NCBI GenBank assembly: GCA_040285855.1 | Contig: JAUFOQ010000002.1 | Location: 868,001 to 932,000 of the forward strand | Source of the DNA: Eukaryota sp. GEM-RC1 | Lineage: Eukaryota | Direction of reading: 5' to 3' | DNA: 64,000 nt | Shown: positions 3,984 through 64,000 of the stretch, in pieces | Numbering within the stretch: position 1 is the stretch's first letter | Layout: each line of letters begins with the position of its first letter | Notes under the pieces: model-generated | Databases searched by the model: none | The model's input: only the letters and a program-made list of their open reading frames with translations | Told to the model about the DNA's origin: nothing | Program-made: the position numbers and the translations under genes

Positions 3984-4049
3984 TTACTCCTTTACTACTA
4001 CCGGTAGTTTCTCTGTTCTTTAAACGGAGTCTAACTACAACTCTGACTA

Positions 4050-34979: not shown

Positions 34980-35370
34980 TACTTATAAATGTAACACAAG
35001 TGCATGATGTACTATCAAATGATCATCAATTTGTGAAATGATTTTCAATGTTGCTGTTGCAAGTAATTGCCGATTGCTCATTACTAATGTGTCATTAGCT
35101 AGGATGTAGCCGCTACAGAACTTATCGAGCTTGTATGCATGATACTTTAAGAGAAATACAAACAGATACATGCTATGTTTAAGTCCTACAAAATGCAATC
35201 AATTGTTGAACCAGTTCTAAAACTTTTTAGAAATACATAATTGCAGCGACGAAAAACAAAACCAATTTTTTCGTGAAATGGGAGCAGACGTTGTTGTCAG
35301 TTCTTCTTCAGACAAAATATATGTTGTCGATGTGCTGGTTGTTTATATTTGCAAAGAGACATCCTAAAAC
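34980..35370 (+). pseudogene. Degenerate copy of the RLE retrotransposon at 45.6-46.7 kb
   Basis: GAGCAGACGTTGTTGTCAGTTCTTCTTCAGACAAA... (ADVVVSSSSDKIYVVDV) matches RRADVVVPSSSDKLFVVDV. Confidence 0.7.
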
Positions 35371-38016: not shown

Positions 38017-41000
38017 ATGTCAGAATGTAACTTTTGATGATGGAAACAATCTGCCGTCAGAAATAGCATCTAAGCTCGAAGATGTTGAACGTTCTGCCAA
38101 AATGGAACTCGGTAGTCCCTCCGCTCCTCTAATCCTTGCTGTAGCTCCCGTAAGCTCCACTCCTGCAAGTCCCTTCAGCATTAGTTTGTTCAAACTCTTG
38201 ACATTTCATACTAGTTTACAACGTTGGGCTGAATGACGAAATTGTTGCAAGCGAGCTCGCTTCAGGTAGTTCTCCTTCCCTAACTTACGACCGCTACCGT
38301 CGTTGTATTAAATCCTTTGCAACCACAGTTCTAGGAATCCCCGATCAAGATTTTGGTAACATTTCCCGTGGATTCAACTCCGATATTAGTGTTATTGAAA
38401 TGAAGAGCGTAGTTGACAAGTACCTACAGCTGATCCTTGACTCTGGTACCTCTTTCCCTCAGAATTGTCACGAACAGCTTTGCATGGTTATTTAATGTTT
38501 GTTGCAAACTAATGAACAAGTAAGAATAGATGTTGTTTCTGTAGCCTGTGTGGGAACTGATGAACCTATTATTTTGAGTGCAACTTCTGCCGGCAATTAT
38601 GAAGTTGCCGAATATCCATTTGTTGATAACGATGGTCCTGAATGCGCAGTCCAATTGGAACCTCTTCCTGACTATGCAGCTAATGTTAGTCCTTTAAGAA
38701 AAGGTATGAACTTTTTCGCTAAGGGACGTACTAGAATGGTCATTGGTGGGCTTGCCCTAATTGCTGTTGTTCTTCTTGCAATAGTATTTTCCATGATGTA
38801 TATGGGTAAGGACAGTGTTCATTCTCTCAAACTGACTTTTGTCAATGAAAAGACCAAACACCTATTCCAAATGTAGTTGTACAATCTTTGCATCAAAATT
38901 TTGGAAGCAAAAAGTAATAACAAAGGAGTCGTTACTATTCCTATGGCAGCATCAGTGGAATCTGAAATATTGGTTATGCATCTCAATTTCTTTGATCGTC
39001 AACTTACATTTACTCTTGAAGATTCTTTTGAAGATACTATATCCTTGAAAAGTCATGGTTTTGTGTCTTCTTTTGCTAGTGGATCTATTACTGGCTATGA
39101 TGCTTCATTCGGTCTTGATGTAGAAATTCCTTCTATGCTCAATAATGTCAACATTACTGTCATTGATGAAAATGCTTTCAAATCTAAAGGTATAGTTTCG
39201 GTTGTTATTCCTGACACTGTCTTGGAGATCCGACAATCTGCTTTCGAGTCCAATAGTCTACAGTCAGTATTCATTCCAAATGATGTTACGATTATCTCGC
39301 CGTCGGCATTTGCTAATAATCTTTTGGAGTCTGTTTCATACGGAAGTGGTGTCACTTCTATTGGTACGAATGCCTTCACTTTCAATCAATTGACTACTCT
39401 CGATCACCCCTTTTATTGGAAACCACAGGTAACAATTTGAAGAACGTTCTATCATCATTTCCCACACTTCTCGATGGTGTCACTACTATTGAAGACGGTG
39501 CTTTCCAAGCCAATCATTTGACAGCGCTCGTCGTTCCCAACAGTGTTATTAGTATTGGAGCTTCTGCTTTTAGTGGTAACCAGCTAACTGAAGTAACATT
39601 TGGAAGTGCACTGCAATCTCTTGGAGAAAACGTCTTTGAAGATAATCTCTTAACATCAGTTGAACTACCTGACAGTCTCCTTGAAATTGGAAGCTCGATT
39701 TTCAAGGGAAATCACATCACTTCTGTAAGTCTTGGAACTGGTATTACAACCATCGGAGATTATGCTTTTGATGGACACAATTTGACATCAATTACTCTTG
39801 GAAGTGCAGTAGTACACATCGGAACTGCTGCTTTTAGACGTAATCGTTTTACCTCGATCGTTATTCCCAACAGTGTCACATTTATTGGAGATTTGGCGTT
39901 TAGTTCCAATATGTTGAATGAAATTACATTTGGATCTTCTAGTTCTCTTGAACATATCGGAGGTTCTGCTTTTAGAGATAATCATTTGACTTCACTCAGT
40001 ATTCCTAACTCTGTTGCTTTTATTGGAGCCTCTGCTTTCAAGGGAAATCAACTAAGTACTCTTGTTCTTCAATATGGTGTCACATCTATTGGAAATTCTG
40101 CTTTTGAAGATAACCATGTAAGTTCTCTCGTTATTCCCAATTCTGTTGTTGCTATTGGAGATTCTACATTCCGTAACAACAAGTTGACTGGTGTTCAATT
40201 TGGTTCTTCTCTTGAACATATCGGAAATGCTGCTTTTGAACATAACACATTACCATTCCTGGTCGTTCCCAACTCTGTTTCTACTGTTGGTGAGGCTGCA
40301 TTCCGTAATAATGAGTTGACTTCTATCACATTCGGAACAAATTTCCAACATATCGGAACTTCTGTGTTTGAAAATAACCTATTAACTGCTCTTACCATTC
40401 CTCTCAGTGTCATTACCATTGGAGATTCATCTTTCAAGAACAACCTTCTCGATACACTTACTCTTCCTAACACTGCCATCTCCTTAGGAGACTCTGCTTT
40501 TGAAAATAACAAATTAGCACATGTCACAATTCCTGTCGGTGTAACAACCGTTGGAGATTTCGCTTTCCGTAACAATCAGTTAATTACTATTACACTGGGT
40601 ACTCCTCTTCAACATATTGGAAGTGCTGCTTTTGAAAACAACAAAATAGCAGCAGTCAACATTCCTAATAGTGTCACAAGTATGGGAGATGCTGCTTTCC
40701 GTAACAATCTGATTGCTGGTATTACATTCGGAACTGGTCTTGATCATATTGCAACTTCTACTTTTGAAATTAATCGAATGGGAGCAATCGATATTCCTGC
40801 ATACATTATTACTATTGGAGACTTGTCTTTCAAAAAGAATATTATATCGAGTGTGACTATGTATCAAGGAACTACATCCATTGGAAATTCTGCTTTTGAA
40901 GACAATATAATTGACACTCAAAGTATCCCTCACACTGTTGAAACTATTGGAGATTCTGCATTCCGTAATAATAGGGTGGCTTCGCTTACAATGGGAACTT

Positions 41001-42118
41001 CTGTTAGACATGTTGGAAGTACTGCTTTTGAAGACAATATAATTGACACTCAAAGTATCCCTCACACTGTTGAAACTATTGGAGATTCTGCATTCCGTAA
41101 TAATAGGGTGGCTTCGCTTACAATGGGAACTTCTGTTAGACATGTTGGAAGTACTGCTTTTGAAGACAATATAATTGACACTCAAAGTATCCCTCACACT
41201 GTTGAAACTATTGGAGATTCTGCATTCCGTAATAATAGGGTGGCTTCGCTTACAATGGGAACTTCTGTTAGACATGTTGGAAGTACTGCTTTTGAAAACA
41301 ATCTCTTACACACGCTCAACATTCCCAACTCTGTCGAAACTATGGGATACGCTGCATTCCGTAACAATAAGTTGACCGCCATTTCATTTGGAACTGCTTT
41401 TAATCACATTGGACCTTCTGTCTTTGAAAATAACATGTTTACCACACTCAATATTCCTTACACTGTAATCACTATTGGAGACTCATCTTTCAAGGGAAAT
41501 CCAATCGGTACTCTTAATCTTGTTAATGACATCACCTCTATTGGAAATTCTGCATTTGAAAGTAATCAAATATCCGCGCTTGCTATTCCTTCTTCTGTTG
41601 TTGCTATTGGAGATTCTGCCTTCCGTAACAACGGTTTGACTAGTCTGTCATTCGGAGCTGGTCTTGAACATATCGGAACTGCTGCTTTTGAAAGTAATCA
41701 AATACCCACACTCTCTATTCCTACATCTCTCACTACCATTGGAGATTTTGCATTTGCTTCAAATACGTTGACCACTTTAACTTTTGAAGGAACCTCACTC
41801 GTTACTGTTTCAGCTTCAACTTTCTCTTCAAACCTGCTGAAATCCGTGACTATTCCGCAAGGAGTCACTTTGATTGATGCTTCTGCATTTTTAAACAATC
41901 TTTTTGAATCTGTTGTTATCAGTAGCTCTGTTGAAACCATTTCTGAAAATGCCTTTTCTTGTACTCCTGATGATCAGTTTACATCTATTCAAATTGATGT
42001 AAATGGTGCTGATGTTCATGCTGAGGCTTTCCCTTCTAATTTCGCTGATGTATATGGTAATAATGGAGCAGGTTCTTATACTAGAGGAGCTGATTTAATG
42101 TGGACACTTGCAGCATAG
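38017..42118 (+). CDS. BspA-like (TpLRR/LRR_5) leucine-rich repeat surface protein with N-terminal TM anchor; several frame breaks
   Basis: About 40 repeats of LxxxxIPxSVxxIGxxAFxxN, TM segment MVIGGLALIAVVLLAIVFSMMYM and a probable 31-nt intron at 38184-38214 (GTTTGT...CTAG). The 5' structure is uncertain. Confidence 0.85.
40890..41296 (+). repeat. 132-bp tandem repeat x3 (two LRRs per unit)
   Basis: Identical unit starts GACAATATAATT at 40901, 41033 and 41165. Confidence 0.95.
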
Positions 42119-43647: not shown

Positions 43648-44789
43648 CAGGAATGTGTATTATCGATATCTTTTATTTATCTTTTGTTGGGCAACTTCGA
43701 TAAATATATTGTCAGGGGAAAATATCTTATTTATTTATCGACTATTGAGCCATGAATCGATAAATATATCTTTGATAATTGAATGATATACAATATAAAT
43801 ATGAAAGATATCTCTATTAATAAACTACGTTTACTAAACTTAACGCATTTCCAAGCCCCACGCGTATATCTGTGCTCAGTCTTTGGAGGGGTTGGGGCAG
43901 AATAAGCTAACATAAAGTGGAAGTTGGCAACTTTGGCATAACCTATAGCCGCAAAGTTTTTTCGGGACAACTTATGGGCCATGATGGAATTATGCAGCGG
44001 CAAACAATTTCTCCAACATCATTTATCACTCCTCACAGCATTTTGGAATACACCGATTGCTTCAATTAGTCTCACTGGAAAGTAGTCTCAGTGAGACTAA
44101 TTCCGATATAACAGTTTCTATTTTGACCTCCCAAGTATTACTACTTTGGTTGTTTTTAACGAGAAAGATGCAACAAAAATACATTTGATTGAATGAACTT
44201 TTACAGTTAGAAGAACTTGTACACTGATAAGATCAACTTAAAACTCAACTTGAAAATCTGATTCCTCTCTGAACACTCTGTATCATATGTTCTAGCTTCA
44301 TCCGTAGCTTTAAGGCCCAAAGCATCTTCCAAGGTCCAACTGAAAATGGTACAGGAGTTTGGCATTGATATAACTTGAACATTGATCTTCAAGAAACACA
44401 GATGTAACAAGGGCAGAGTTTATTTGTTAAAGAGATTAATAACTCAAATTAGAGAGACGGTTTTTAAAAAACAAACGATGCCATGGAATGATGTATTTAG
44501 TGAGACTAGTACAACTGCGAAACAATTAGCAATTACTCTCACTAATTACGATACGTGACCAGTGAAAGTGACGTAACTGAAACAATCATTCGTCTTTCAG
44601 AGAAATCACTCACTGAAACCAGAAAAATGTTCTAATTGGTCTCCAAAAATATCTTTCTTTATCGCAATATATCGGAATATTGTTGGCGACAGTCGATCAA
44701 TATATCTTTCAGAATTTTTGGGTCGATAAGATATCGATAAGTAGATATATCGTTATCGAACAATAAGATTTTATCGATACACATTCCTG
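43648..44789. mobile_element. hAT MITE (nested)
   Basis: TIR CAGGAATGTGTAT, TSD CCATGTTC and ATCGAT subterminal repeats. Confidence 0.92.
44051..44557. mobile_element. Pogo-derived MITE
   Basis: TA|CACCG...AATTAGTCTCACTGGAAA...GTCTCAGTGAGACTAATT matches the left end of the pogo element at 61914. Right end is degenerate and approximate. Confidence 0.65.
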
Positions 44790-45599: not shown

Positions 45600-46700
45600 A
45601 CAACTAAAATTTGATATCATTAAAACAACACCCATCGCTATCAAACCTTACAACAGCTTTGTCCTCATAAAACGAACTCACTGCTAATAAAGCCTTGGAG
45701 ATGATTAGGGGAACTGTTTTAAAAATAGTAAAAACGATCCGATTCAACCATAACATATGATCAAAACGTTTGTTCATCCTATTTTTTACGATTCTTCCGA
45801 AATCGTTTAAAGAATTCAATGCACTTTTTCCTAAACGTCCGTAAATTGAAATAGCAAAGGGGATAATTCGTACTCAACATGTTTTACATGTTTTAAAGCC
45901 ATCAATGGTTTATTGTACTTATCCTGTTTGGCCTGTTCAGAAATGTCTGAAGGAGAAGTTTCAGACGAAGCGTTCTTTAAAGATGTCTTCTTACAAACAT
46001 CCACTGACACTACATCAACAACAAACAATTTGTCTGAAGAAGAAGGGACAACAACATCTGCTCTCCGTTTGCCAAAAAATTGGTTCTGTTTTTCGACATT
46101 ACTATTATTACTTGGTTCTAAAGATCTTAGAAGTGGTTCAACAAATGACTCAATTTTGTAAGACTTACACATAGCATGTATTTGATCTCTTACAGCATCA
46201 TGCATACACGCTCGATAAGTTATGTAGCGATTACAACTTAACAGATGAGAAAACGTTAATTGTTTTCCACATCTATATTGAAGATCATTTGACAAATTAT
46301 ATTGCCATAAATCACAACGAAGTCTCATTGTAGTGGTACATTGATGATCATTTAACAACAAACCATATACTTGTGGAATTTGATTAATTAATGCCACAGT
46401 AGAACTCTCCTTTAAATCAATTTAAAAATTCTAAATTATTATTACATTGTATTATTATTTACTAATAAAAATGTTGGAATGAAGCAAGCTATTCGAAATT
46501 ACTTGAGTTTAGACCTGAGTCGGAGTTTCAATTGGGAGTCAACAATACAATCAGACTGCTTAAAAAGTGGGATCCTTACGCCACCAACACCAAGCAACAA
46601 AGACTGTCAATGGACGAACTCTCAACATTTGATTTATTAGTTAGATCATAGTATTGATAGTTCCAGAAGCAGTTGTAGGAAGATTACCAAATTACAAATG
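45600..46700 (-). pseudogene. 3' part of an RLE-type (CRE/SLACS-like) non-LTR retrotransposon
   Basis: Zinc knuckle CG...HLLSC, HDAVRD, VEP, RRADVV...VVDV and EQAKQDKY fit a restriction-like endonuclease. No RT domain visible. Confidence 0.8.
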
Positions 46701-46727: not shown

Positions 46728-48617
46728 CAGGGATGGGAAATATTGAATTTCCAATCGAATATTGCCAATCATCATCAATATATATTGATTGATCCGCTGT
46801 TTTTCAATATCAATATATTGCCAGAATTGCCAATACAATATGTCTCTAATAAAACAACATATTTACTTTTTCTTCCCTTACATGCCTGACAATAAAGTCG
46901 TTTGGGGGGTCTTTTATACCCTGTAGTCAACAATTGACAGCCATGAAACCTGGAAATGTGTGTGTGGAGAGATCCGAAAACGAAACACTTAGAGTTCATT
47001 CCTGCAACTTCTGTTGAAGTGGAAAGATTATTTTCTCGCATTACTAGTAAGCTTTTTAAGGGCCAAAATCGATTTTGTTTATCGTCAGCAAGATTTGAGC
47101 AATAGGCATGGCTGCTCTTCAATCGAATGTGAACACTTTTAGAAATGCTTGCCAATCCCACTGGTCTGAAGAAGATGAAATCGTTGATGGAGATGGAGTT
47201 TAGAGTCTCAAACATACATGTTGATCACACTCGTTTTGTCAGTGTGATCACAATCACAACCACAATCACAACCACATCACACGATCACATGTGATCACAA
47301 TCACAAATTATGATCACAAATACTGTTTATTGGGAAAAATCAAGTTGATAATGATGTATTATAATATTTATACATATCGAATCGAACTTACATAACCCTA
47401 CAGCTTTCTTTTGCGAACACGATCTATTTCACTGACCTGAGACCAATCTACATCAATGTGCTCCTCCATATCTGCTCCTTCGATCACAAAAGCTTCTCCA
47501 ATATACTCTTATCATCCTCATCCTCATCGTCATCTGTGATGTCGTCAAAAACATCTCTCAAATCAACATTTGCTACCACATCCATTGTATCTGCCGGTTG
47601 TTCTTCTTCTGCCAACAACACTAAAGACCCATATTTCCACATCCAAAAGAACATCCCCCACTCTAGATTTGGTCTCCAGTATTTAGTTGAGAATACCGAG
47701 ATTCAAATTTTTGGGTTCTTGTTTTAGAAGAGGAGTATTGAAATGAATAATCGTCATGTCATCCAAATCATCGTTGGTCAATTTCAAGTTGTTTCAAGTT
47801 GAAATTTTCAACCTTCTTTGGACACCTGGAAGTCAAATGAAGACCAATTCCTTTCTGTTGTAGATGCTGAACCAGTATGGCCTGTTATTCTTTGAGCTAA
47901 TTGACTCAACTGTGGATAAAGCTGTCTACCAACAGAGTACCACCATTGATGGATAGCGAAATTAATGACTTCAGAAGTAGTAAGTTTTGTGGTAAAATCT
48001 ATTGTATGATATAGTATTGTTTGATATCTTATAGCACCCTTGACATTGAAAGTCTTCCTTACCTGATGTGTTTTCATGAACTTTCACGAGCTGGTAAAGC
48101 GGATTGTCCTTGTTACAATCGGATTGGAGAAAAGGAAGTGATGTCATTGTTCGGAAAGGGTAAATGTAGTTTTCGAGCACCAGATTAGACTCTAAACTTG
48201 TGCTCTATACTGTAGAGTGTTGTTGAACAATTAAAACTGGTCTAGGTTTATCACATACATGTATTATATAAATGACGTCACTTCAGTATGGATCACATTT
48301 GAATCACAAGTGATGTGATCACAAATAAAAGGCCAGTGTGATCACATGTGATCACAATCACAATGTGATCACATGTGTTTGTGATCCACAAGTATGGTCT
48401 CAAAACTTAAGACTATTTGTTCGCAACAAATTGTTGCATTTCTTTTGTAGTATAAAATTTAGATAGGTTTTGTTTTGATATCTTTCATTAATTTAAGTGT
48501 ATTAACTATACAATCTACATATTGCAATATTGGCAATATATTGGAGCCACTACTGTATTGATTGGTGAGCTGTTTTCCAATACCAATATATTGCCAATCC
48601 AATATTTCCTATCCCTG
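46728..48617 (+). mobile_element. Non-autonomous hAT element (outer)
   Basis: TIR CAGGGATrGGAAATATTG, TSD CTTATTCT and relic FIPATSVEVERLFS at ~46990. Confidence 0.92.
47213..48396 (-). mobile_element. Non-autonomous hAT element (nested)
   Basis: TIR CATACwTGTkGATCACA, TSD GTCTCAAA and relic WWYSVG..YPQLSQLA...SASTTERNWS. Confidence 0.92.
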
Positions 48618-48714
48618 CTTATTCTCGGTGAGAATCACTTAACTTCAGTTCTACTTCTACAATGTGTAGAAGTGTAGTATTTTTTCTGAGATTTCTTTTC
48701 TTTTCTCTTTCTTA

Positions 48715-48872
48715 CCACTGTGAATTTCATTCCAAATGCATAAAGGCATAACCCTTCACATTTTCATGATCTCATGAGCAAGCTCGTAAGCAAACTCATG
48801 AGCAAAATTCACAGTTTGACAAATAAATGTCCTCATTCGCAAAGTCTTTTAAGACGAGCTAACTTCATAGAT
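48715..48872 (-). ncRNA. Putative Fanzor omegaRNA scaffold (right end of copy 2)
   Basis: Homologous to 3856-3983. Perfect 10-bp closing stem CTGTGAATTT/AAATTCACAG (48718-48727 with 48805-48814), with inner hairpins. Confidence 0.75.
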
Positions 48873-51800
48873 TCAAGATTCCTGATCTTTCTGGTTTACG
48901 TGTGAGTCCTTGGGTACATCTTTCTTAGGCTTATTTGGACAAGTTGCTCTGTTATGTCCAGGTTGAAAACATATACCACACTTGTTAGGACCTCTGACTT
49001 TTGTTAGAGGACGCTTTGCTTTACCCTTACCCTTACTCACAGTCTTTTTCTTAGGAATCTGATCTGTATTCCCGCCATCCACGACAGGTGTTGTTTGAGA
49101 TTTTGGTCTCTCGAGGATGGCAGGTCTACCTTGACCTTGAATGGTTCCATTTACAATATTGTAAATATTGATAGCAGAATTGAAGTCTCTATTCCAGAGA
49201 ACATGGCATTTAGCACATTCAACTAAGCCCCATGGTGAGACTTTTTTGCTCTTCAATCTTTCTTTTGATAATGGCAACTGGTCTGTCCATTCTTCATCAA
49301 AGTTACGCTCCACAATATTGTGTAATTGATTGTGTTCCATAATTTCCTTTTTTAATTCTTTCTCTTCCTTCTGTAACTTCTTCTTCCAATGAGGATCAGT
49401 GACTTTTATCCTTTCAGGATTGGAACAGATACCTTCGTCGTTTCTGGAAACACATGCAGAGCAACATTTGCTGGTCTTAAATTCATCAACTAGGAACACT
49501 TTAAATCCAAATTTTCTCAATAATGTCCGAATTGAAGCACCTTTCACAGTCGATGCTTTACCTCTTCTTCGACGCAAAGCAGTGTCGTTCCAGTCTCCAT
49601 ACCCAACAACGACTTCATCTGGGTTTCCAAACTGGAGAGCAAATCTGTGAAGCATGTTTTTCTCACTTCGTTCCTTTCTTGAATATTGTGTGAGACGATT
49701 CCTTCTAAACCACCTTTCTTCGTAAATTCCTTCAGTATTTCTTTGATCAGTAGTGGGTGATCGTAGTAAAGAACAGGTAATTTCTTTACCAAGAACAAAA
49801 GCAGAATACAGAGTCAAATCACAAGATTTACTGCCTGGCGAGTTAGAGCCCCATTGATCTAAAATTTGTTGCCCATTTATGTCAATGCGTCTGCCATCTG
49901 GACTGTGAATAAATTGGGTAGAATATTGTTGTAACCGTTCGGATTCAGATAAACAGTAGAGATTGTATAGTCTTATTTTCTTCTCCAGCTTCCTCTTCTT
50001 TCTCTTAGCTCTTTTTCTTTCCTTCCTTGTTTTTTTCTTTTCCATGGAGACTTTTTAATATCGGCATTGCGCTCCCCAGCAGTGTATCTGAATACTTTCC
50101 AATTGTCTCGATTTTTCAACTTGACAGTTGTTGGTTTGTCAATAGTGGGTGCGTCTTTCCAATCCTTCAATTCCTTTTTTAATTTTTTCAAGCTTCCTTT
50201 TTTCTTTGAAGATTTTGGAGAAATCTTTCTTCTTCTGAGATTGGCTGATGTATCGAAACCTTCGATTTCCTTTTCCTCCTTAGATTTTAAAGAAGCACAA
50301 TACATCAAATCATGCTGATTAGGATCAATAGCAACAATTCTTTTGGATTTCAAATTTAAGTTTTGAATTTCTGTGGAACTCAAAGAATCAATGTACCTTT
50401 CAGTAGCTGTGTAGTCAACTGCTTTCACCTTCTTATGAGGATTTCCTTTCCCATCAAGCAGATCTTTCCGCATCATTATTAAACTACAACTAACTCCATC
50501 TGTAGAAATAGAACTGTATTTGAAGTCATGAGACAATGACTTTGGAAGACACTTTGGTTTCAAAACTGAGTGCCAAATATCTTTTCGAACGTCATCAAAG
50601 CTTCCTTTAATTTCTGATGCATAAACTTCTTTAAACCATGTAGTATCCAATCTGATATGATTAGGAATCAATGATTTTGTTAGAGGAAAAGGATTATTGG
50701 CAGTAACACCAGGACAAGAGTCTTCAACAAGACGTTTCAAATACACTGCATGACTTAAGAATTTCAAAGGATCTACTTTTTCAGCATAATAGATTGATTT
50801 CTCCATTTTACCTTCAAAAAAAGTAAACAAATAGTTAAAAAATAGTAAACTCAGTCTAGACTTGGGATCAGGAAACACTTCAACATCTTGAAAATTAATT
50901 TTTGAAACTTCCCCATTAATGATCAACTGTCTGATTTCATTAAGCTTTGTACACAACTCTTGTCGTTGATTCTTATCACTAAGCTTGTTAAGTCTATCTT
51001 TTTCAGGGTAACCAAATTAAATACTTGAAAAACATATTCGTGAAGATGTTCACACATGTTGGTCTTGTAATTTGTAATAATTTCTGTTCCCATGTAATGC
51101 AATATACGAGATAAACGATGACTACTGGGAAACACAATCCTATCAAGTCCAACGGAATCAGCAGCTAGTTCTAAACGAGGAATGTAATGCATCAAGAAGT
51201 GTTGAGCAAACTGATTTTGAGTTGAGCCATCATTTGTGTTAGAAATTATGTTTGTTAACGATTCTTGTACAGTCTCAATATGATTCTGATTGTTTACAAG
51301 TTTGTAGTCCCTAATCGTCATCATAGATAACACTTGTTCCATTGATTTCAACGTAAAAAAATTCTTCCAGTATGGCAATTCAATTTTGGTAGTTTGAATT
51401 TTAGTCCAAAGGTCAGGTTCAGGTTCAGCACTCGCATCTTCAATATTTTCTAATTTAACGGGAGGAGCAGTAGCATCGATAGACTCTGAATGTACATCTG
51501 TTTCTTCTTCAGTTGACTCATCTGTATCAGAATGCATTTCTTGCTTAACAGTTACATTTGGAACAGTAGCAGGCAGTAACTTCTGAATGTAACCTAAAAT
51601 ACCTGAATGGTGAAAATTATGAACAAAAAAATGTTTCAAAAGAGAGAACCACGGACTCTTACTTGATGAGCTCTCTTAACACGAGATTCAATCATTCTAA
51701 TTTTGGATTTCATGATAACATTGTCCAGTCGTTTCTTAACCACTTTCATTGGTGACTTTGAACGTAAGGTTTGCTTTTTGGGATCCAATAGGTCAGCCAA

Positions 51801-54800
51801 CAAGTACTCAATCAGAGGTAATTGTTGAATTGAGTTCATCAACAATAGCGGTCTTGTCGATTCCTTGGCCCAAAGTTCATTTACTTTTCCAAATTTCGAA
51901 TAAATTTCTTTTTAATCTTATCGACCTTCACTTTGGGATTGTCTGGAACTAAAACATTAATACTGTCAATTATGCCATGCAAGTTTTGGACATTATTGAC
52001 CAATTGAACTTCATCAGGATCAGAGTCATGATTAAGATCTTCCAAGCGTTTGACAGTTTCATTTTTAGAAAAATTATTCATTTCAAGAAAAATTTGAACA
52101 ACATTTTCCAAAAAACGGCCACCAGTAAAGACATAAAAATTCTTCAGTACAGCATTCAAATCGAGACTAAAAAACGGACCAAAAGTTGTTTCCTTACACC
52201 ATTTGTTGAACCAAGAGGGAATATAGGGTTTAAATTCTGGAAAAGTAAACGTTGTATTGATTTTGAGGACTTTACAACGTGATACAAGAAAGGGAAATGT
52301 ATCTAAATGAAAATCATAACTCACAAACAATCGTGGACAATGTTGAGTTATGAAGGAAATGAAGTTTTTAAGCATACTGGATTCACTATCTGAAATATGT
52401 AAAGTACACAAATCCAAGTTTGTAGTATCAAAATTGTTATGAGAAAATAAATGTTTTTCATTAAACTCATTATGATCAATGATCTGGATGAAAATTGATA
52501 CAATCGGATCAACAGAAGAATCACGTTTAACTTCTAATTGATCTTCAGCTTCAACTTCAACAGTTTCAATGTCATCATCATCTTGAACAAGTTGAACATT
52601 TCTGCCATTAATTCTTTCTTTTTGGCAAAATCACTTTGAACATGAATTAAACAAAAAGTTGGCAGATTGTTCCAAAGTAGAGGGGATTTAAGAAAGTCTT
52701 GAATTTGTATTTCTTGTTCGATAACCTCAGTGTGTAGATTTACTTCCATATTAAGAATTTCTTTTGAATTGGCGATGGATACGACATAATGGAGGCCTGT
52801 GATTTTTGTGGTAGTTCAGAAGGTGGTAGTTCAGTTAATGATGATAGTTCAGATGGCGATGATAGTTCAGGTAGTGATAATTCAGATGATTCCAATGTGG
52901 ACATACGGCGGTGAGTCTTTCGTATTGGAGTGGCACCAGTTGAAACAAGGGAGCTGGTAGTTCTAAATTTACTTCGTTTAATTAAAGGTGAACCTCGTGG
53001 TGATGGAATATCAGAAATTTTGGCCTTACTTTTTTTAGTGCTTAAACCAGTAGATGTTTTAGTGCTAGCAAGACGTTTACCTGAGATTGGTGACGCAGAA
53101 ACATGCGACAACTCAACAGGACTAAAAGTTTCAAAATGTTCCAAAATTTTTACTTCGAGACTCATGAACATCAATAGTGGTGCAACACAGCAGTTCTTTA
53201 ACATCAGTCCACCTTATGACCACAGATTGATCTACATTCATTAAAAGTTCAATGTATTCGAGAACACAAAAACCAGAGTCAGTTAGAGTATGTTTGATAT
53301 TTGATGGAATAAACCGTATGTCTCTGATTTCAAGGACTGATGAAACTGAATAAATTTGTGACACAATTGAAAATAAATTGGAGGAAGTTGGTGCAACTGG
53401 CGTTTGGTTAGCAGGAAATTCTCTGGCATAATCATCCTCATCGTAGGTCGGATCAATGAATAAAATATGACTTGTATGAGATGAAATGATCAGAATAATT
53501 AAACCCCAATGACGACCATCAGCATTAAGATCGCACATTGCACTATTGACAGGAACAAGTAGCATTTGTTGGTGTTTCTTTTCACCACATTGGAAGAATT
53601 TCTGCGTCAAAAAATCTGAAAGTGGATATTTATCATAGGGTTGGTCACCATATAATAACGGATATAAATCAGTTGGCCTAATTACATAGTCATAAAAGAT
53701 TAAACCTGTTGATTCCACAAGTATTTTGGAATATTTGATGAACAATTGATCGTCAACATAAGTAAACAATTTCTGAATCTGTTTACGGAGATCTGCAGCA
53801 TTAAGTTCATTGTTAACTTGGATTAAAGCACGTTCAATAGATATCAAAGATAGATTGATGCGATCCCTTGAAATGAGTTCAACAAATTTTTGAATATAAC
53901 CAATAACATAAATACCACAGTGATTAGGAGTCTGTGTCTTGGTGATGTTGACCCTCTGTACGTTCAATGTTACTTTCCTACATAATTCATCTACAACAGA
54001 ACTTAGATAAGAAGAACCAACAATTGGATCCACAAATATCGCGTTGTTTTCCGCACAGTCTATTACCATTAGACCCCAATGAACTCCTCCAGATCCACCT
54101 GTTGTATTCATAGCATCGTTGAGAGGAACAGCGAAGTATCTGGTGCTTCTCTCCCGAGCGTCATCAATCTTGTTTTGGCAGTATCCATCAGTGAAAAAAT
54201 CTGACCACATCTCACCGGGAGTAATGAAATAGCATTCCCAATCGAGGTTTGCTTCTTTGAATAGGTGTTTTGAGTATTCGGAAAAGGCGTAATCATCTAT
54301 CCATTGGCCAGGATTCAGATACTCTAGGGAGTCTTTGGACCACGGTCCGGGATTGGACTCAATGTCACCGTCGGCGGTGAGGTCTTTTGGGGACGGATGT
54401 CTACACGGTTTTTCAATAGTACTCGTCCGGTAGACAGAGAGTGAGAGTAATAGTGATGGAAGAATGACTTGAAACAGAGGATGAGACGAGATCAATGTAC
54501 ACGAAGAGGAGAAATTTAAGAAGGGTTGTAAGAGCAATTGGTAGCAACAGAATTGCAACTTCCTTGACACAACACCAAGAACTACATGATCCATTCGAGA
54601 GTCAAACCGCACAATGGATTGACTGTCGAAATAGTTATAAAATCCCGTAGCATTGAAGACGAAGGAACACAATTTGACGTAGCTTATGGGGGAGGGACTC
54701 AGCAACAGCGTAATGGCGACGGGATTCAAGAGACTTGGCAGCAACTCGTAGCAACACAATTGGGGCTTCTTTGGCAACACAAAAGCGGACCTTGACACAA

Positions 54801-55278
54801 CACCAAGAACTACATGATCCATTCGAGAGTCAAACCGCACAATGGATTGACTGTCGAAATAGTTATAAAATCCCGTAGCATTGAAGACGAAGGAACACAA
54901 TTTGACGTAGCTTATGGGGGAGGGACTCAGCAACAGCGTAATGGCGACGGGATTCAAGAGACTTGGCAGCAACTCGTAGCAACACAATTGGGGCTTCTTT
55001 GGCAACACAAAAGCGGACCTTGACACAACACCAAGAACTACATGATCCATTCGAGAGTCAAACCGCACAATGGATTGACTGTCGAAACAGTTCAAAAATC
55101 CCGTAGCATTGAAGACGAAGGAACACAATTTGACGTAGCTTATGGGGGAGGGACTCAGCAACAGCGTAATGGCGGAACTAGAGAACTTGAGCACCGTTTC
55201 CAACATTTGAACCAACCAAGAGTCAATCCGCACAATGGATTGACTGTTGGAGTAGTTTAACGTTTGTAACAGAGACAT
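48873..55278 (-). CDS. Fanzor1 polyprotein, copy 2: leader - 2A - 2x SENP8/Ulp1-like - PolB exonuclease-like - RuvC Fanzor - zinc knuckle (8 frame segments)
   Basis: RuvC motifs RIVAIDPN, GYGDW, FLVDEFKTSKCCSAC and LWNRDFNSAINI. Seven joins (~53140, 52780, 52615, 51885, 51640, 51000, 50033) are each repaired by +/-1 nt in a homopolymer; three are confirmed by the unbroken frame in copy 1. Confidence 0.8.
54343..54384 (-). other. 2A / StopGo ribosomal-skipping motif DLTADGDIESNPGP
   Basis: Exact match to D(V/I)ExNPG|P, in frame and directly before the protease domain. Confidence 0.9.
54562..55174 (-). repeat. 228-bp tandem repeat (~2.7 units) in the leader upstream of 2A
   Basis: Near-identical units with a 228-nt (76-codon) period, plus a partial copy at ~55219-55250. 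Confidence 0.95.
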
Positions 55279-55759: not shown

Positions 55760-56335
55760 AATTAATGTGACTATCATCAACTAAAAATCAGTTTAATTCT
55801 TGGCTTCATCTATCTTTTTGTATCGTCACCACTTCTCTGCTAAGTTGTACTTTACGGAGAGTATCATCATTTGGTTTATAGATACTGAAATGTAAGGATC
55901 TTTTATGAGAGAACACGAGTGTCTTTTATGAACAAGTAAGCGATGAAAAGTTGAGGGTGTCACGCTTCTATTGAGATAAGTGTGAACTACTTTGGAGATT
56001 TCGTGTAGGAACAAGAGGTTTCTGGGAAAGAACATTCTCAATAAAATCACCGTCATCATTACTGAGAATACAACGGGAGTCCTGAGGATGTACTAGTTTG
56101 GGGTTAAAGAGATCTTTGATTCATCTACAGATAGTTGTTTGGTGAACCCAGAATACTTGAGAAATTTCGGACTGAGAGCGTCCAAGAAAGAAGTAAGTAT
56201 AAAGAGCACCAACTCTGGTATCGGAAGTGGTGTGATAACGGAGTTTTTTCAAGTCAGCTATGGCAACATCATCCAGAGGCCGAAGTTCCCTCCTTAGTTG
56301 AGGCAGTTCAGTAAAAGATCAGATTTATAGGGCAT
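55760..56335 (-). pseudogene. IS630/Tc1-like transposase relic (N-terminal HTH region)
   Basis: Broken frames read YHTTSDTRVGALYTYFFLGRSQSEISQVFWVHQTTICR*IK...FIENVLSQKP/LLFLHEISKVVHTYLNRSVTPSTFHRLL. Confidence 0.6.
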
Positions 56336-56797
56336 ATCAGCTTGACAAAAATGAAAGACTAGAAGTGAAAATTCTTGATAAGCACCCGAAATAAAATCCA
56401 CAGTAATCAGACAGATGAAGAAAATGTCATAAGTGAAGATAATAGATGTGTTGTTAAGTATGTCAGAAGAAAATCTATAAAATTCCTCCCTTCATATGAT
56501 CATCAGCAACACTTTCAAGAACAAGAGGAACACTGCAATTACGACACTCCTCGACATTCAAATACCGGCTCTTACAGAAACATATGGCCTTTCGTGTGGG
56601 CTGACTCTCCTGCCATGGACGCTCAGTAGAATCAGGATAAGGAATCCTGGTCTATATAAAGTGAAAACTCCTGTGAAAAAGGAGAAAGTCCCGAAAATAT
56701 TAGCTGAACTTTCAACTTTTTGTGAAAACTTCATCTCTGCCATTGCATTGGTTTTTTCTTTGAACCAACCAAAGTCATTTTAATTAATTTCAATGGC

Positions 56798-57790
56798 GTG
56801 TGTACCGAACAAACTGTATCTAACCCTTTGGATACAGCCCCATGTGATAATTTTGTAAAAATATTAAAACAAAAATGGGATCTCTCACTTCAAGAGTCTG
56901 AGACTGTTCCAGTTGCTCATGAAGTTACAGAATCAATTTCAACTGACTTAACAGTTGAACTTTCTGAACCTGTTGCTTTAGAACAAGTTGATGTTACTAT
57001 TCAAACAGAATGTACTCTTGACTCAAGTACTGAACTTTCTGAATCTGTTGAACTTACTGTGGCTCTATCACAATCTCGAAATCCTTTGGACGCTATCCCA
57101 GTTAAAGAATTTAACCGTGTATTTTATTGTGAAGCTAATAGAAAATTGTGGGGAAAATCATCTAGGGAATTATTGGAAATTCTTCAGAACGATGATGAGT
57201 CTACAGATGATGATGATGAAGATGAAGATGATGAAGAAAACGAAAATGAAGAAAACAATTTACAAGTATTGTCAGCCAGTGATGGAGACGCTTGCTTTAG
57301 TTATTGGTGTAGCATCCCAAAAGGGGTTTGTAAGGTCTTACTATCTACTGAAACTGAAGTTATGATTAATGATCCAGAACATTATGCCAGAAAAAATGCT
57401 TGGGAACTGTTAAATGTGGTTGTTACACAGCAAATGAAGATTTTATGTCCTCTGTGTGCTTTTGGGGACCCCATTGGGTCACATAGAGGAGTTGGACATT
57501 TTTTCTTGGTGGAATGGTTCTTTGATTTAAATTCTCGAAATCATATTTTTAACATATATGATAGTATGAACTTTTCATGTATGAAGAAATTTATTATTTT
57601 ACCTTTTCGAACCTTGTTAAGGAACATCAACAGTGGAGGGAGGATCAGGAATTACCTTGGATTTAGTGAAACAGAAGCACAAGGTACCTTATCTTCAGAT
57701 AGAATGGCATCAACGAGTGCTAGGAGAGAGATCTCATGTTTGATTTGTAAGATCAAGGGGGTGACTTTAAAAGACTCGGATATGTATTGA
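56798..57790 (+). CDS. Ulp1/C48 protease-like protein, apparently truncated (His and Asp present, catalytic Cys not seen)
   Basis: KILCPL...GHFFLVEW...FNIYDSM after an acidic stretch; no QxxxxDCG follows. Confidence 0.5.
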   Translation: MCTEQTVSNPLDTAPCDNFVKILKQKWDLSLQESETVPVAHEVTESISTDLTVELSEPVALEQVDVTIQTECTLDSSTELSESVELTVALSQSRNPLDAIPVKEFNRVFYCEANRKLWGKSSRELLEILQNDDESTDDDDEDEDDEENENEENNLQVLSASDGDACFSYWCSIPKGVCKVLLSTETEVMINDPEHYARKNAWELLNVVVTQQMKILCPLCAFGDPIGSHRGVGHFFLVEWFFDLNSRNHIFNIYDSMNFSCMKKFIILPFRTLLRNINSGGRIRNYLGFSETEAQGTLSSDRMASTSARREISCLICKIKGVTLKDSDMY

Positions 57791-58043
57791 AGTGCTCGAA
57801 AGTAGTCCAAGGACAAGAAACATTGCTTGTCATCAAGCTCAATCTCAGCACCAACATCACATTTTACAAAGACATATAATTTGACATATGAGACGATAGA
57901 AAGCTGATGATGGTAGAATAAGCTGCTAAGAATCAGCTAAGAACCATCATATTCCATACAGTTGAGGTAGATATATAATTTATAATGAAAGGAAAGTTTC
58001 CCTGCACAATCTGCATCTTAAACATCACCACTTCACACACTCA

Positions 58044-60089
58044 ATGTCCATTATCAACACACTTACAGACGAACAGGCTCACGTCTTCCAAGCTATAACT
58101 CATGCTAGACCTTCTAAGCGTAAGAATTTCTTCATTACTGGTGGTGCCGGATCGGGCAAGTCTTACCTACTGTACTGTCTTAAACAGTGGTGGTCTAATG
58201 CGGGTTCCAAGCTAATGAGACCCAATGGCCATGTCTTTTTTACTGCTACTACTGGTGTTGCTTCCACTGTCTTTGGTGGTCAAACCCTACACTCTCTCTT
58301 TGGTTATAATTTTATCCGTAATGAAAAACCAATATCTGATGTCATTCGCTCTATGCCTTCAAGTGTTAAGTCTGTTTTACGAACAATTAGTGCTCGAAAT
58401 TCAATGCTTGTTATTGATGAAATTTCAATGTTGACTGCTGAATTATTCAACAGAGCATCTGATATATTTAAAGATTTAATGAAGTCTCAGTTACCATTTG
58501 GTGGACTTCAAGTTGTAATTTTTGGTGATTTTTTGCAACTTGCACCAATTGTAAAGTCTGATTCAAACACACGTAAGGTCCTTCAACTTTCAGACTTTAC
58601 GTTTTCATCACAGTCTTGGAAGGATTTGAATTTAAATTTTATTGAATTATCTGGAAGTATTCGACAACAAAGTGATGTCAATTTTTATAATTTTTTGAAT
58701 GAACTACGTCTCGGACTTTTTGATGACTATATGAAACATATTTTATTGAAACATAAGTCATTAGCCAAAAATATTGAAAGTCCAACCAAATTATTTGCTA
58801 GAAACAAGGATGTCGCAGACGAAAATTTAAAGCAATTTGAATTATTATGTGAACAAGGGAATGAAAATGTTGAATTTCATTCCCTCGATAAGTTCAATGA
58901 AACCTTAATTAAATCAGAAATTGGTAAAAGTTGGGCATTTGGTAAGCCTAATGAGGAACAAATGGAAAAGGCTGTTGGTTTAAATTTAAAAAAATTATCA
59001 AGTAGGCTAAACGATTTTGCCGAACAAAAATTTCACTGTGTCGTCGGGGGTTTGGTAATGTTTACCCAAAACAAACCAGATCTGGGCCTAGTAAATGGGT
59101 CAAAAGGCAAAATTATTGATTTCTCTGAAAGTTCACATTTCATTAATGTAAGATTCGGGAGGGACGAAGAACCAATCAAAATTATTCCGACTAAATTTGA
59201 AATTGAGGTGTTGAATGAGAAGAAAAAGCCTGTTATTATAGCATCCCGATTGCAATATCCTCTTCGTCCTTGTTGGGCAATAACAGTCCATAGATCTCAG
59301 GGTCTAACAATTGAAGGAATTGAAGTTTCCTTAAATTTTTGGGAGTATGCCCAATTGTACGTCACATTGAGTAGGGTGAAGAATTGGAACTCAATTAAAA
59401 TTTTAGATATTTCTTCCAGATTTCCCAAACCAAGAATTGATCTTTATCAGTGGTATTATTCCACTTTTCACCCCCCTCGACCAGTTACAAAACCTCTTTA
59501 TCCTTTGTCTTTACAAAATGAAAATATTGTTAGAAATTGGCCTTCTGTGTTGAAAACTTTTGATGCCTTTTCGTCCAATATGATTTCTAGTGTTGGTGAT
59601 AGTATGGAAACTGTTGATGTTCTTGATCCAGTCAATGAAGAAATTGAGGAAGATTTGGTGGAAAAAGATGTTCCAAGTATTGAAAATTTGAATACCACTT
59701 CTAATTCAGTTTTAGAATTATTCGATAATGAAGTTGTTGTCTCTGGAAGTGATGGTGGAGATGACGAAACTGATGATGATGACGATGCGTCGTCTAGTAT
59801 GAATGATTTTGTTGTGAATGATGATGAAGATGAGTGTCTCAATGGTCAAAGTGTAAGTGCCATCAATTCTGATTTAATTTTTACCAAGCCTGTGCCAAAA
59901 CTGAAAAAAACAACAGTTACTACTTTGCCTAAATTGAGACCAAATCTATTGTCTCGAAATACTCTCAAACCAAATTTGAATTTACCTAGTTTGAAATTAT
60001 CAAAAAAGTTACAGATCATGAGGACACTGAAGTCGTCAACAGAATATCAAATTCACTTGATCTTCAGACAGACTTTGAAAACAACTTGA
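58044..60089 (+). CDS. PIF1-family 5'-3' DNA helicase with acidic C-terminal tail
   Basis: Motifs FITGGAGSGKS, TATTGVAS..FGGQTLHS, VIDEISM, PFGGLQVVIFGDFLQLAPI, RQQSD, LVNGSKG, QYPLRPCWAITVHRSQGLT and QLYVTLSRV. Confidence 0.93.
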   Translation: MSIINTLTDEQAHVFQAITHARPSKRKNFFITGGAGSGKSYLLYCLKQWWSNAGSKLMRPNGHVFFTATTGVASTVFGGQTLHSLFGYNFIRNEKPISDVIRSMPSSVKSVLRTISARNSMLVIDEISMLTAELFNRASDIFKDLMKSQLPFGGLQVVIFGDFLQLAPIVKSDSNTRKVLQLSDFTFSSQSWKDLNLNFIELSGSIRQQSDVNFYNFLNELRLGLFDDYMKHILLKHKSLAKNIESPTKLFARNKDVADENLKQFELLCEQGNENVEFHSLDKFNETLIKSEIGKSWAFGKPNEEQMEKAVGLNLKKLSSRLNDFAEQKFHCVVGGLVMFTQNKPDLGLVNGSKGKIIDFSESSHFINVRFGRDEEPIKIIPTKFEIEVLNEKKKPVIIASRLQYPLRPCWAITVHRSQGLTIEGIEVSLNFWEYAQLYVTLSRVKNWNSIKILDISSRFPKPRIDLYQWYYSTFHPPRPVTKPLYPLSLQNENIVRNWPSVLKTFDAFSSNMISSVGDSMETVDVLDPVNEEIEEDLVEKDVPSIENLNTTSNSVLELFDNEVVVSGSDGGDDETDDDDDASSSMNDFVVNDDEDECLNGQSVSAINSDLIFTKPVPKLKKTTVTTLPKLRPNLLSRNTLKPNLNLPSLKLSKKLQIMRTLKSSTEYQIHLIFRQTLKTT

Positions 60090-60170: not shown

Positions 60171-61912
60171 GGTAAATTGACAAGTTACCAGACAACATTG
60201 GGTAAATTGACAAAACTTTTTGAGGAATTGTCGCACGACATTTTTTTTCTCGTGTCATAAAGATTGTCACTATATCATCAATTTTGAACGTCAATTACAA
60301 GTTTTTATTGATGCAGAATATCATCATATAACTACTGAGTTCTGGGTTGACGGCGTGGTGGCTCATCGTTCTCTACACAAGTTCTTCTGTTATGGCCCCG
60401 TTGTCCACACACAGTACACGTTACCCTTCTGTCGATATTCTGGATATCAGCTCGAACAACCTCGTTGGAAGTTTGGTTTCTTGAAGGATTTCGTGGTCTG
60501 CCTCTTTGAGGGATATCTTGTCTTCTCGGATTCTCAGGTCGTTGTTGCTCGGATAACAACTGTTTCAGTTTAGGGATCAATAAGCCCTTCTGGATGGAGG
60601 AAAGACTCTCAATGCTGTTCCAAAGAAACATCAGTTCAGAAGAGGTATCAAGAGGGGGATCTTGAGGAATTGGAGGATCTAACATAGCAATAGATGGCTC
60701 TGGGTTTAATTGCCATTGAGGATGGAAAGAGTTGACAGAAAGCTGCTCATCAGCAGCGACCGGCAGCAGTGACCGGCCCATTGGTGTAATCTACTTAGCC
60801 ACTGACTGTCAACATATTTTACAAGTGAATGTTCCTCACCTAGAGTGGATACAATTGTTTCCCAAGTTGCAAAAAAATCTTCTTCTGATGCTGCATAAGC
60901 CATCTGCTTAAAACAGTTGTTGAATGAGTCTAATTCTTGACTCAAACCAAAGCACTTCATCTCTTTGGTTTCATGATGTGCCATAAGCACAATAAATGAC
61001 TCGCATGTGGCACTAAAGATTGGATTGCATTACACAACGCCAAATCTCTGTCAGTAACCACAACAGACAATTCAGCCATAGATGCGAAAACATTTTGAAA
61101 TGCCTGTAATGCCCATCTGTAGTCATTTTCCGTTTCAGTGGCAAGAAAAGCAAATGCTAGAAACAGTGACTTATTCTGCATTGTTTTTGTGCCATATACA
61201 AGCAATGGCATTGAATGGATATTTGCATTGTACGTACAGTCCAAAGATAGCACGTATTTGTACCTATTACCTAGTTCAACAGCATCAATGTGTGTAAGAA
61301 ACAGATTTCTCACAGTGTTATCTTCATTGAAGCAGACATCGTACTTCCAATCTGCTCTAGTTTCAAGAGTTCTGAATAAACTGTCAATCTCGCGGAGACC
61401 ATCTGTCTGAATTTTTTTCCATCTCTTTTCCAATTGCTAAGTTCATCATACAAGAGAGGACACGCTGAGATATCGAGGGCATCAGGGGTTCGAGAGGGAT
61501 ACAGGACTCTAAGGGTTTTCAGGATATCACGTGAGGTTTGACCAGAAGCACAAAGACTGTGAATTTCTTGAGAATGATCAAGGCTCCACCAACGTCGGAA
61601 AGTAGCATGAGCGGCTAAGTTTTCAACAAAGGAGTGTTGAGAGTGGATCCCATCAGTGTCTACGTTGCGCCAAAAGCCATCCTTGAGGTGGATATAAATG
61701 CGAAACGTGCACCCTGTTTTCTTGGACTGGTTATGAGCAGCATATCCACGATTTTCCCTGTCACAAATGAGATAGCAGTAGGAATCACCAGAAGATCTAA
61801 GACTTAGAGCAAAACCTTGTTCAAAAGCCCATCGTCTGAGTGTTTGCTCTAGATCGTCTCGAGTGTCAAACTCGTAAAGAGGTGGCTTTGTAATTCGAGG
61901 ATCCTGTGACAT
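60171..61912 (-). mobile_element. MULE/Mutator (FAR1-like) transposase, internally deleted and frameshifted
   Basis: WAFEQGFAL...SKKTGCTF, LDCTY...MPL, AFAFL..E...Y.WAL, VTDRDLAL...LLCLWHI and C-terminal RGRP...CTVCGQRGHNRRTC. The catalytic-E/SWIM region is missing. GGTAAATTGACAA repeats at 60171 and 60201 mark the probable end. Confidence 0.88.
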
Positions 61913-61913
61913 A

Positions 61914-64000
61914 CACCGGCGGCAGTAATTAGTCTCACTGGAAAATTAGTCTCACTACAAAATTAGTCTCAGTGAGACTAATTATGTCCTGGACCTTTCA
62001 GAATCGCCCAAGTGAGACTAATTATGTCATGAATCCAACAACCTTAAAATTATCCATGTTTATCATTCTACAGTAGTATTTTATTTAACACCCATATTCA
62101 ATTACATGCAATTGTGTTCAGACAATGAATACATCTAATTTACTCTTCTTCACAATAAAAACCATCTTATCTGATATGAACAACCCTTTCTCATCATCTC
62201 CTCTTGAACGAGCATTTGCACGTGTTGAACGCTCAGTGCAAAACAATCAAGTCTTACCCCCAAACGCTTCTGATGCCAATAATCCCCCACTTGTACAAAT
62301 TGATGACGTACATCCCTCTCAAGAAATCGAAAACGCCTCGCAATCGAATGAGCCTGATAAATTACCAAAAACAGGAACTAAAAGAAGGGTTCAGCAAGTA
62401 TCCACTAAACAAGCACGCAAAACAGTTCTTCAATGGATGGAAAATTGGGTAGTGGAGCAAGACACTGATAAAGGCTTGATGGCTGCAGCTATCAAACAGT
62501 TTCCTGATCACTTCAGGGCGTCTCCAAACGCAAACATTAAAAAAAGCGTCTAACTGGTGGAAAGAACGTCATTCCTTCTACAGAAGCTTAGAAACCGAAA
62601 AGCTTTCACTGCAAAGAGTGCAAAACAGCACCGTAAAGAAAGTTTTGTTGAAGGCGAACAGCGGACGTGGAAGAAAAAGAGCAGCGTGGGTTGATTGGCT
62701 CCACAAAGAACTGCTACGAGAGTTTGAGTTCATGAAGAAGGCCGGTTGTAAGATGGATACAAGTATATTAGAAGATGTGGCGAAATATGTCCTAAGATCA
62801 AGAAATCATGCCATCTTCCAGCCAGACTGGATTGATCCTGACAACAAGTCAGACAAGACTCTTATTGACCGTATTCAAGCGAAATGGATTCATCAGTTCA
62901 TGGTTCGTTTCAACATTGTTCCTAGAACACAGACGGGAAAACTGTCTGTTGGTGCAGTGAAACAGGAAGAAATTGAAAGGGCTGTTGCCTTTCATTTAGG
63001 AAATGTATCGAGAATGTTTGCTCAAGGATTAGATGACCGTCAAATTTGCAATTTTGATGAAACCCATTTTCGAATTAATATGGACAACAAAAAAACCTTG
63101 GGTTTTATTGGTGATGAAGAAGTGCGATATACTGATGTTGTTAGTGGCTCTCAAGGAATGACGTTAGTAGTCAAGTTGACTGGTGGCCCAAACGCTCGTA
63201 TTGATGTTCCTTTTATTATTTTTCAGAATCAGGCTGAAAGTCACCCGATCAAAAACATTGGTGATAAAGATCCTGGAGTGGCATATCGAACAGCCAAGAA
63301 GGGTTTTATGACTTCAACAAAGTTTGCAGAGTATTTTGAGGAACGAAGAGTGAACAAACGACTCACTAACAACAAGCAGCAAATATTGTTTTGTGACAAC
63401 GTCCCCACTCACAAACTGACTCCAAGAGTGAAGAATGCATTGACCCGCTTGAATGCTGTTGTAAGCTTCCTTCCGCCAAATGCAACCCACCTTGTACAGC
63501 CATGTGATACTTTCATCATTGCTATGATTAAAAAAGCATGGTCTCAATCTTGGGATAGGAAAAAACTGGAAATGACACAACTCGGTGATTTCAGCAACTC
63601 TGGTAAGCTTCCAAATCCAGGTAAAAAGTATTTCTTACAGCTTGCGAAACAAGTTGTTCAAGATATCAATCGAAAGAGAAATGAGAACGGGGATTCATTT
63701 GCTAGAGTGGCCATGATGAGATGTGGATTAGGATTGGATGACGAGGGACAATGGAATATCAAGCATTTGAGTCCCGAACTTCAAGCTATCGTGGCAAGAT
63801 ACAGAACTAACTTCGATGGCGAAAGACCGGATAACTACGAAGATGATTATTGGAATGAAATCAGTGATGTGAAAGACGATGGCGACTTTCAAGCTCCTGA
63901 GGATGAATCAGAAGAAGACCATGAAGAAGAAGAAGTGGTCAATGTTCCAGAAGAAGAGATCATTGATTTAATGAGTGACAATGATGATTGCTATACATTA
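61914..64000 (+). mobile_element. Pogo/Tigger-like DDE transposon; transposase from 62125 runs off the window
   Basis: TA|CACCG end with AATTAGTCTCA repeats. After one extra A at ~62545 the frame reads NFDETHF...GFMTS...LFCDNVPTH...FLPPNATHLVQPCD. Confidence 0.9.

Follow-up and report, generated by a model that had tools for sequence, protein, structure and literature searches.

A catalytically degenerate family-B polymerase exonuclease-like domain in frame with Fanzor1 in a multi-copy element of Eukaryota sp. GEM-RC1

Fanzor1 nucleases are recognized by a RuvC aspartate, a rearranged glutamate, a zinc finger, and the RD and TDG motifs (PMC3627910, PMC13565253, PMC10711439), and homing by Fanzor has been argued for (PMC13565253). 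Separately, DNA polymerases (Pol) alpha and zeta of family B (PolB) keep inactivated exonuclease domains (PMC7544198), a repair role has been argued for the Ulp1 proteases of transposons (PMC2836005), and 2A ribosome-skip peptides follow the consensus GD[V/I]ExNPGP, a motif that is insufficient by itself and needs its upstream context (PMC3708506). The element described herein brings such parts together. It lies in a 64,000-nucleotide stretch (the window) of Eukaryota sp. GEM-RC1, positions 868,001 to 932,000 of contig JAUFOQ010000002.1 (assembly GCA_040285855.1), and is present there twice: copy A, of subfamily A, at 48.9-55.3 kb, and copy B, of subfamily B, at 1-3.9 kb. In this element, a PolB exonuclease-like domain immediately precedes a Fanzor1 nuclease in the same reading frame. 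GEM-RC1 is a free-living metamonad whose published assembly was built from nanopore R9.4 reads and corrected with short reads (PMC11316075).

By homology, the stretch ahead of Fanzor1 is almost certainly a family-B polymerase 3'-5' exonuclease domain. An earlier note on this DNA had proposed as much and had named profile searching as the check. The Pfam profile PF03104 matches the open reading frame (ORF) in the window with E=4.2e-6 (26.8 bits, cut-off 23) and exceeds its cut-off in 9 of the 10 sibling proteins scanned (25.3-33 bits), the tenth, P0018, ending ahead of the core. A fold search also matched the domain to a PolB. An ExoII-like pattern, composed post hoc with the sequence already known, occurs twice in the window and in none of 100 shuffles. 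In copy A, the domain covers 51770-52690 on the minus strand, as outlined by PF03104, the read-through siblings and the PolB fold match, and single-base breaks, one near 52621 and one near 51881, distribute it over three reading frames. The ExoI strand, FCLIHVQSD at 52630-52656, is found in the neighboring frame, with HxQ in place of DxE; in P0004 and P0005 the Pfam match begins at this strand, where the predicted model also has a beta-strand. It is followed by DSSVDPIVSI (52522-52493), SDSESSML (52393-52370), the ExoII motif SYDFHLDTFPFL (52286-52321), with Thr for the catalytic Asp, and FSLDLNAVLK (52171-52142). An ExoIII-like helix, with Asn and Gln for Tyr and Asp, would lie at 51789-51836, its register being taken from a weak hhalign match to giant-virus PolB (E=0.0099). 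Copy B, on the plus strand, retains the second two-thirds of the domain (1-627, truncated by the window edge, with a break near 199), with the homologue LTNFITF...SYDWHLDTFPFL at 2-88. The motifs quoted in the earlier note, including the copy B homologue, are thus where it had placed them. Its extent of 52130-52680 stopped short of the ExoIII-like helix; its remark that the ExoI DxE is not evident was right about the acids and overlooked the strand itself; and its placement N-terminal to both Fanzors was accurate, while the in-frame fusion and the 2A-Ulp1-exonuclease-Fanzor1 architecture had escaped it.

Evidence for the fusion comes from the window and from the siblings. A stop-free frame of copy B (172-2688) spans the second half of the domain, the Fanzor start (628) and RuvC-I (2143). 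ExoII and the Fanzor start occur together in 11 of 79 sibling proteins, and P0124 and P0133 run in one predicted frame from ExoII past RuvC-I. A Fanzor1 profile made from 86 stand-alone relatives begins at residue 762 of P0012, 11 residues past the last helix of the domain. With P0012 covering 2A to REC and P0164, P0171 and P0172 covering WED to the knuckle, these overlapping siblings, together with P0124 and P0133, tile about 1,722 residues. They suggest a protein of about 1,720 residues comprising a repeat leader, a 2A-like motif, Ulp1, a linker, the exonuclease-like domain, Fanzor1 and a zinc knuckle. No polymerase domain follows the exonuclease-like domain, as no polymerase family matched in the scanned ORFs or siblings. 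Both copies in the window are interrupted. Compared with the siblings, copy A has six missing bases and one extra, each tested junction is crossed by at least one sibling, and all four of the breaks scored with an 8-nucleotide window lie by runs of at least 4 (background 23%). Copy B lacks a base at two points (near 199 and 2549), has an in-frame stop next to a run of four T (near 2816) and, close to its end, carries one base too many (about 3745). Such breaks are consistent with uncorrected long-read errors in repeats, and they are probably assembly errors. It is very likely that the exonuclease-like domain and Fanzor are fused in a living gene.

The domain has, with high confidence, lost its catalytic activity, to judge from the residues at its active-site positions. 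Among 14 copies, ExoI reads HxQ in 11, ExK in two and DxQ in one, DxE being found in none, and the catalytic Asp of ExoII is replaced by Thr in 18 of 18 copies, in a register that is fixed by aligning the copies without gaps to yeast Pol delta and to archaeal PolB. As a control, the ExoII Asp is kept in 75 of 75 giant-virus PolBs; as these were chosen by their ExoI and ExoIII motifs, ExoII alone is independent. At ExoIII, the Tyr and Asp positions read N..Q/K and the presumed Asp is replaced in all 17 copies, by Q in 12 and by K in five, in a register that comes from the weak profile alignment to giant-virus PolB, an alternative register set by eye giving E in A and K in B. A D-x-H-x-D adjoining ExoII is invariant in both subfamilies, so that rewired chemistry keeps a slight probability.

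The earlier suggestion that a catalytically dead module has been kept under selection is borne out on both counts. Between copies A and B, the exonuclease core (92 codons, 57% identical) has a nonsynonymous rate (dN) of 0.34, a synonymous rate (dS) of 1.21 and a dN/dS of 0.28, estimated from this single pair with dS near saturation; the corresponding ratio of proportions (pN/pS) has an interval of 0.33-0.62. The exonuclease core is under purifying selection. In the same comparison, dN/dS is 0.17 and 0.22 for the Fanzor cores, 0.31 for the Fanzor N-terminus, 0.66 for the exonuclease insert, with an interval including 1, and 0.20-0.53 for the other inserts. Within subfamily A (9-14 copies per region), the divergence per site is 0.02-0.03 in the exonuclease core, its insert and the ExoIII helix, and 0.06-0.10 in the linkers, Ulp1, REC and the stretch of ExoI plus insert; recombination between modules may contribute to these differences. 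The protease part is variable, with an active and an inactive type that are both present in copy A of the window, and the exonuclease-like domain stays beside Fanzor.

The element belongs to a sizeable family. Clusters of RuvC ends with 26 and 14 members amount to about 40 siblings labelled Eukaryota sp. GEM-RC1 in two subfamilies, which are about 46% identical within the exonuclease-like domain. Five homologues carry PF03104, three of them labelled GEM-RC1 (93-97% identical) and two others at 47% identity. The nearest Fanzors outside GEM-RC1 (86 proteins) are stand-alone enzymes of 626-674 residues with a core identity of 31-39% in the 26 sampled; PF03104 is found in none of the 86, and the open frame ahead of the Fanzor start does not exceed 56 codons in any of 79 viral loci. 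One stand-alone Fanzor1 relative of about 655 residues has 188 matches in viral contigs, many of them in giant-virus bins, and in this Fanzor1 family of giant-virus contigs (L001-L080) L012 and L013 have matches with some 720 bp of additional length, which points to an insertion.

Because the domain is homologous to PolB exonucleases, a polymerase ancestry follows, as the earlier note had hinted. Its other hint, a viral ancestry, is not supported for the domain: a profile search of viral and metagenome contigs returned no relative, the matches to giant-virus PolB profiles are weak (E=0.01 and 0.002), and the best solved structures are archaeal PolB and Pol delta, at E 0.0007 or worse. It is the Fanzor half that has the link to viruses. 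The longest structure match, to Pol delta, covers the DPIVSI stretch, and Pol alpha and Pol zeta are absent among the solved-structure matches listed at E up to 10. We infer that the domain may have been captured from a cellular delta-like gene. An origin from Pol zeta, where the domain is already inactive, may be the alternative, and the ExoII pattern of Pol zeta presumably resembles that of this domain.

The nuclease half is, judged by its motifs, a Fanzor1. In copy A (48873-51749, minus strand), it comprises an N-terminal helix, REC, WED, RuvC, a zinc finger and a CCHC knuckle, with the RuvC-I Asp at 50329-50309, the rearranged Glu at 49490-49470, the RD motif at 49196-49182 and the C-terminal knuckle at 48980-48939. 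In copy B, it extends from 628 to 3860 on the plus strand, in frame with the exonuclease-like domain to about 2550. The Fanzor1 of S. punctatus is the top match of both (E=5e-8 and 6e-13 for copy A, E=1.4e-10 for copy B), PF07282 is above its cut-off on the Fanzor part, and both copies have the signature D...TSxx-C4 zinc finger...RD with the rearranged Glu. The WED motif is TDG in A and SDG in B. Both 3' ends fold strongly, at 48700-48864 on the minus strand in copy A (fold z -5.1 and -5.3) and at 3850-3995 on the plus strand in copy B (fold z -3.2), and the similarity between the copies ends at about 48718, with a common motif at that boundary. This is as expected for an omegaRNA scaffold, so that the 3' end is a candidate guide-RNA scaffold of omegaRNA type. 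A clear partner for this 3' end, in the form of a terminal repeat, was not found within the window.

Upstream, copy A opens with a leader of three 228-bp tandem repeats (54562-55245). The repeat unit varies among copies (P0009, P0018, P0019), while the 2A motif is invariant. The putative ribosome-skip peptide GDIESNPGP (54343-54369, minus strand, as for the modules that follow) matches the 2A consensus exactly, and such a motif is present in 11 of the 24 siblings examined. Next come a protease domain of the Ulp1/C48 type that retains His, Asp, Gln and Cys (53773-54342; PF02902, E=1.9e-5, above cut-off) and a second Ulp1-like domain (53140-53770) with HWGL at 53511, HTLTDSG at 53292 and Ser for the catalytic Cys. 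The latter is likely inactive and is also found in P0002, P0004 and P0005. A Ser/Pro-rich linker (52691-53130) then leads to the exonuclease-like domain.

All steps of the mechanism beyond this architecture are proposals. The tentative reading that we favor, at somewhat below even chances, is that the dead exonuclease domain clamps, without cutting them, the 3' DNA ends that Fanzor would produce. Binding of 3' ends or of nucleic acid more generally, as the putative selected role of the domain, comes close to even chances. In this scheme, 2A skipping would shed the variable leader from the polyprotein, and the product (Ulp1, dead exonuclease, Fanzor1 and knuckle) would load omegaRNA from the 3' end of the element. 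The guided Fanzor would then cut the site vacated by the element. In the least certain steps, the dead domain would hold or shield the 3' end left by the cut and so favor repair that copies the element back (restorative homing), and Ulp1 would act on host SUMO-controlled repair or silencing. Taken as a whole, a self-processing polyprotein that steers repair, in which 2A frees a SUMO-type protease together with a disarmed domain that caps cut 3' ends and a nuclease, is possible and on balance unlikely.

Other roles for the domain have to be set against the clamp. It could be a protein-docking module, whose Pol delta/zeta-like surface recruits or decoys proteins of host replication and repair where Fanzor cuts. 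The conservation between subfamilies far beyond the active site would fit this, including a Trp/Phe-rich stretch that we take to lie where PolB has its beta-hairpin. The adjacent Ulp1 likewise suggests host-protein targets, and Pol alpha and Pol zeta offer a precedent (PMC7544198). However, the very low identity to cellular PolBs implies that a mimicking surface would be much altered, and no partner was identified; docking appears doubtful. A captured host-gene fragment could also be a mere folded spacer or stabilizer between protease and Fanzor that binds nothing in particular. Selection for folding alone could yield a dN/dS near 0.3, the other inserts are below 1 as well, and the nearest Fanzor1 relatives work without the domain; but it is the least variable module in the subfamily A copies, and it was kept in two subfamilies at about 46% identity while the protease was swapped or inactivated. 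A spacer is improbable. Only a slight chance is left for an active nuclease rewired with non-canonical ligands, trimming Fanzor-cut ends or omegaRNA. The two acids and the His near ExoII would supply ligands, the first ExoI position is D in one copy and E in two, and DEDDh nucleases are known in P and piggyBac elements (PMC3627910), yet no canonical acid is common to both subfamilies and, of the four presumed metal-ligand positions, two are occupied by Lys in subfamily B.

Least probable of all, though it touches the fusion itself, is that the two halves belong to separate genes or to decayed ones, or that programmed frameshifting alone connects them; tiling of fragments would then have created the single frame artificially. 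Both window copies are broken, and many siblings end at the same two A-runs, which could thus be real, shared breaks. No record covers ExoI to RuvC-III, a search among proteins of 1,468-4,190 residues having been empty. On the other side, the exonuclease-Fanzor junction is stop-free in the window DNA as well as in the 11 siblings, and six of the seven copy A breaks, all crossed by siblings where tested, are single missing bases and the seventh a single extra one. Several further points weigh against the clamp on a fused protein. With a tighter 6-nucleotide window, 3 of 5 copy A breaks lie by runs of at least 4 (background 17.5%), copy B has its in-frame stop, and the siblings are gene predictions, of which P0001 and P0009 appear to bypass breaks via predicted introns. 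Because the Fanzor start has a conserved Met and a protease is present, the domains might end on separate chains. The linkers mostly have dN/dS below 1 as well (0.20-0.66), the selection estimate has its single-pair basis, and the predicted structure model is of low confidence (pLDDT 43). The ExoII Asn of PolB contacts the DNA end; in these copies it is replaced by Asp, which would disfavor binding.

Other features of the window lie around the element. About 100 nucleotides past its 3' end, a hAT-like element (46728-48617) has 28-nucleotide terminal inverted repeats (86%) and a remnant of the hAT dimerization domain (E=2e-4). Upstream and in the same orientation, broken frames at 55800-56350 (minus strand) resemble by eye a Tc1/IS630-type transposase with a helix-turn-helix, with no supporting Pfam match, and could be the cognate transposase. 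Divergent from the element, an ORF at 56726-60089 (plus strand) combines Ulp1-like motifs seen by eye (no Pfam match) with a PIF1 helicase (E=1e-32). A frame-broken Mutator-like (MULE) transposase at 60200-61950 (minus strand) has a CCHC knuckle, and over 43 nucleotides the DNA of this knuckle shows 72% similarity to that of the Fanzor knuckle. A palindromic motif common to 44064-44102 and 61927-62023 could mark MULE ends, which would enclose the Fanzor element in a span of about 18 kb. Also present are a DDE_1 (pogo/Tc1-type) transposase (62480-64000, plus strand, E=1e-14), an inverted 340-bp similarity (73%) between the unannotated regions 35028-35369 and 45976-46298, and a BspA-type leucine-rich-repeat gene (38877-42118, plus strand) divided between two overlapping frames, as is the element.

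Selected accessory domains on Fanzor point to a step after cutting, and they could be deleted separately to probe the homing model. Genome editors are often fused by design to exonucleases; that nature has used a disarmed exonuclease in such a fusion suggests that templated repair might be reached by protecting ends. If the proposal is true, a module that sets the repair outcome would be part of a Fanzor by nature. The family is easily missed because frame breaks split its genes into hypothetical fragments. In the literature searched, no natural Fanzor is described that carries a PolB exonuclease, Ulp1 or 2A as a fusion, although supplements or Repbase could list such loci, and the word 'exonuclease' is absent from the main text of PMC3627910, PMC10711439, PMC10530073, PMC13565253 and PMC10432273.

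Compared with known systems, the nuclease shares with Fanzor1 (SpuFz1 of S. punctatus, GtFz1 of G. theta and the giant-virus family of about 655 residues) the REC/WED/RuvC core, TDG, RD, the rearranged RuvC Glu just ahead of the zinc finger, a structured 3' end and the multi-copy element, and differs in an N-terminal extension of about 760 residues that holds 2A, Ulp1, the linker and the dead exonuclease, in several inserts and in a C-terminal knuckle. The exonuclease-like domain has the ExoI-ExoII-ExoIII-like order and spacing and, in the low-confidence model, the alpha/beta core of the PolB exonucleases (Pol delta, archaeal B3, giant-virus PolB); unlike them, it has lost its acids, carries inserts after ExoI and before ExoIII, and is followed by no polymerase domain. 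The inactivated domains of Pol alpha and Pol zeta have kept the exonuclease fold and are likewise without catalysis, but stay within a polymerase (PMC7544198). Ulp1 is also borne by mobile-element proteins such as the Ginger1 and Mutator transposases (PMC2836005), and an N-terminal 2A motif by the non-LTR (long terminal repeat) elements L1Tc, Ingi and CR1 (PMC3708506), whereas here both are on a Fanzor nuclease, with no transposase or reverse transcriptase domain seen in frame. Each part of the element thus has a precedent, and it is their combination that appears to be new.
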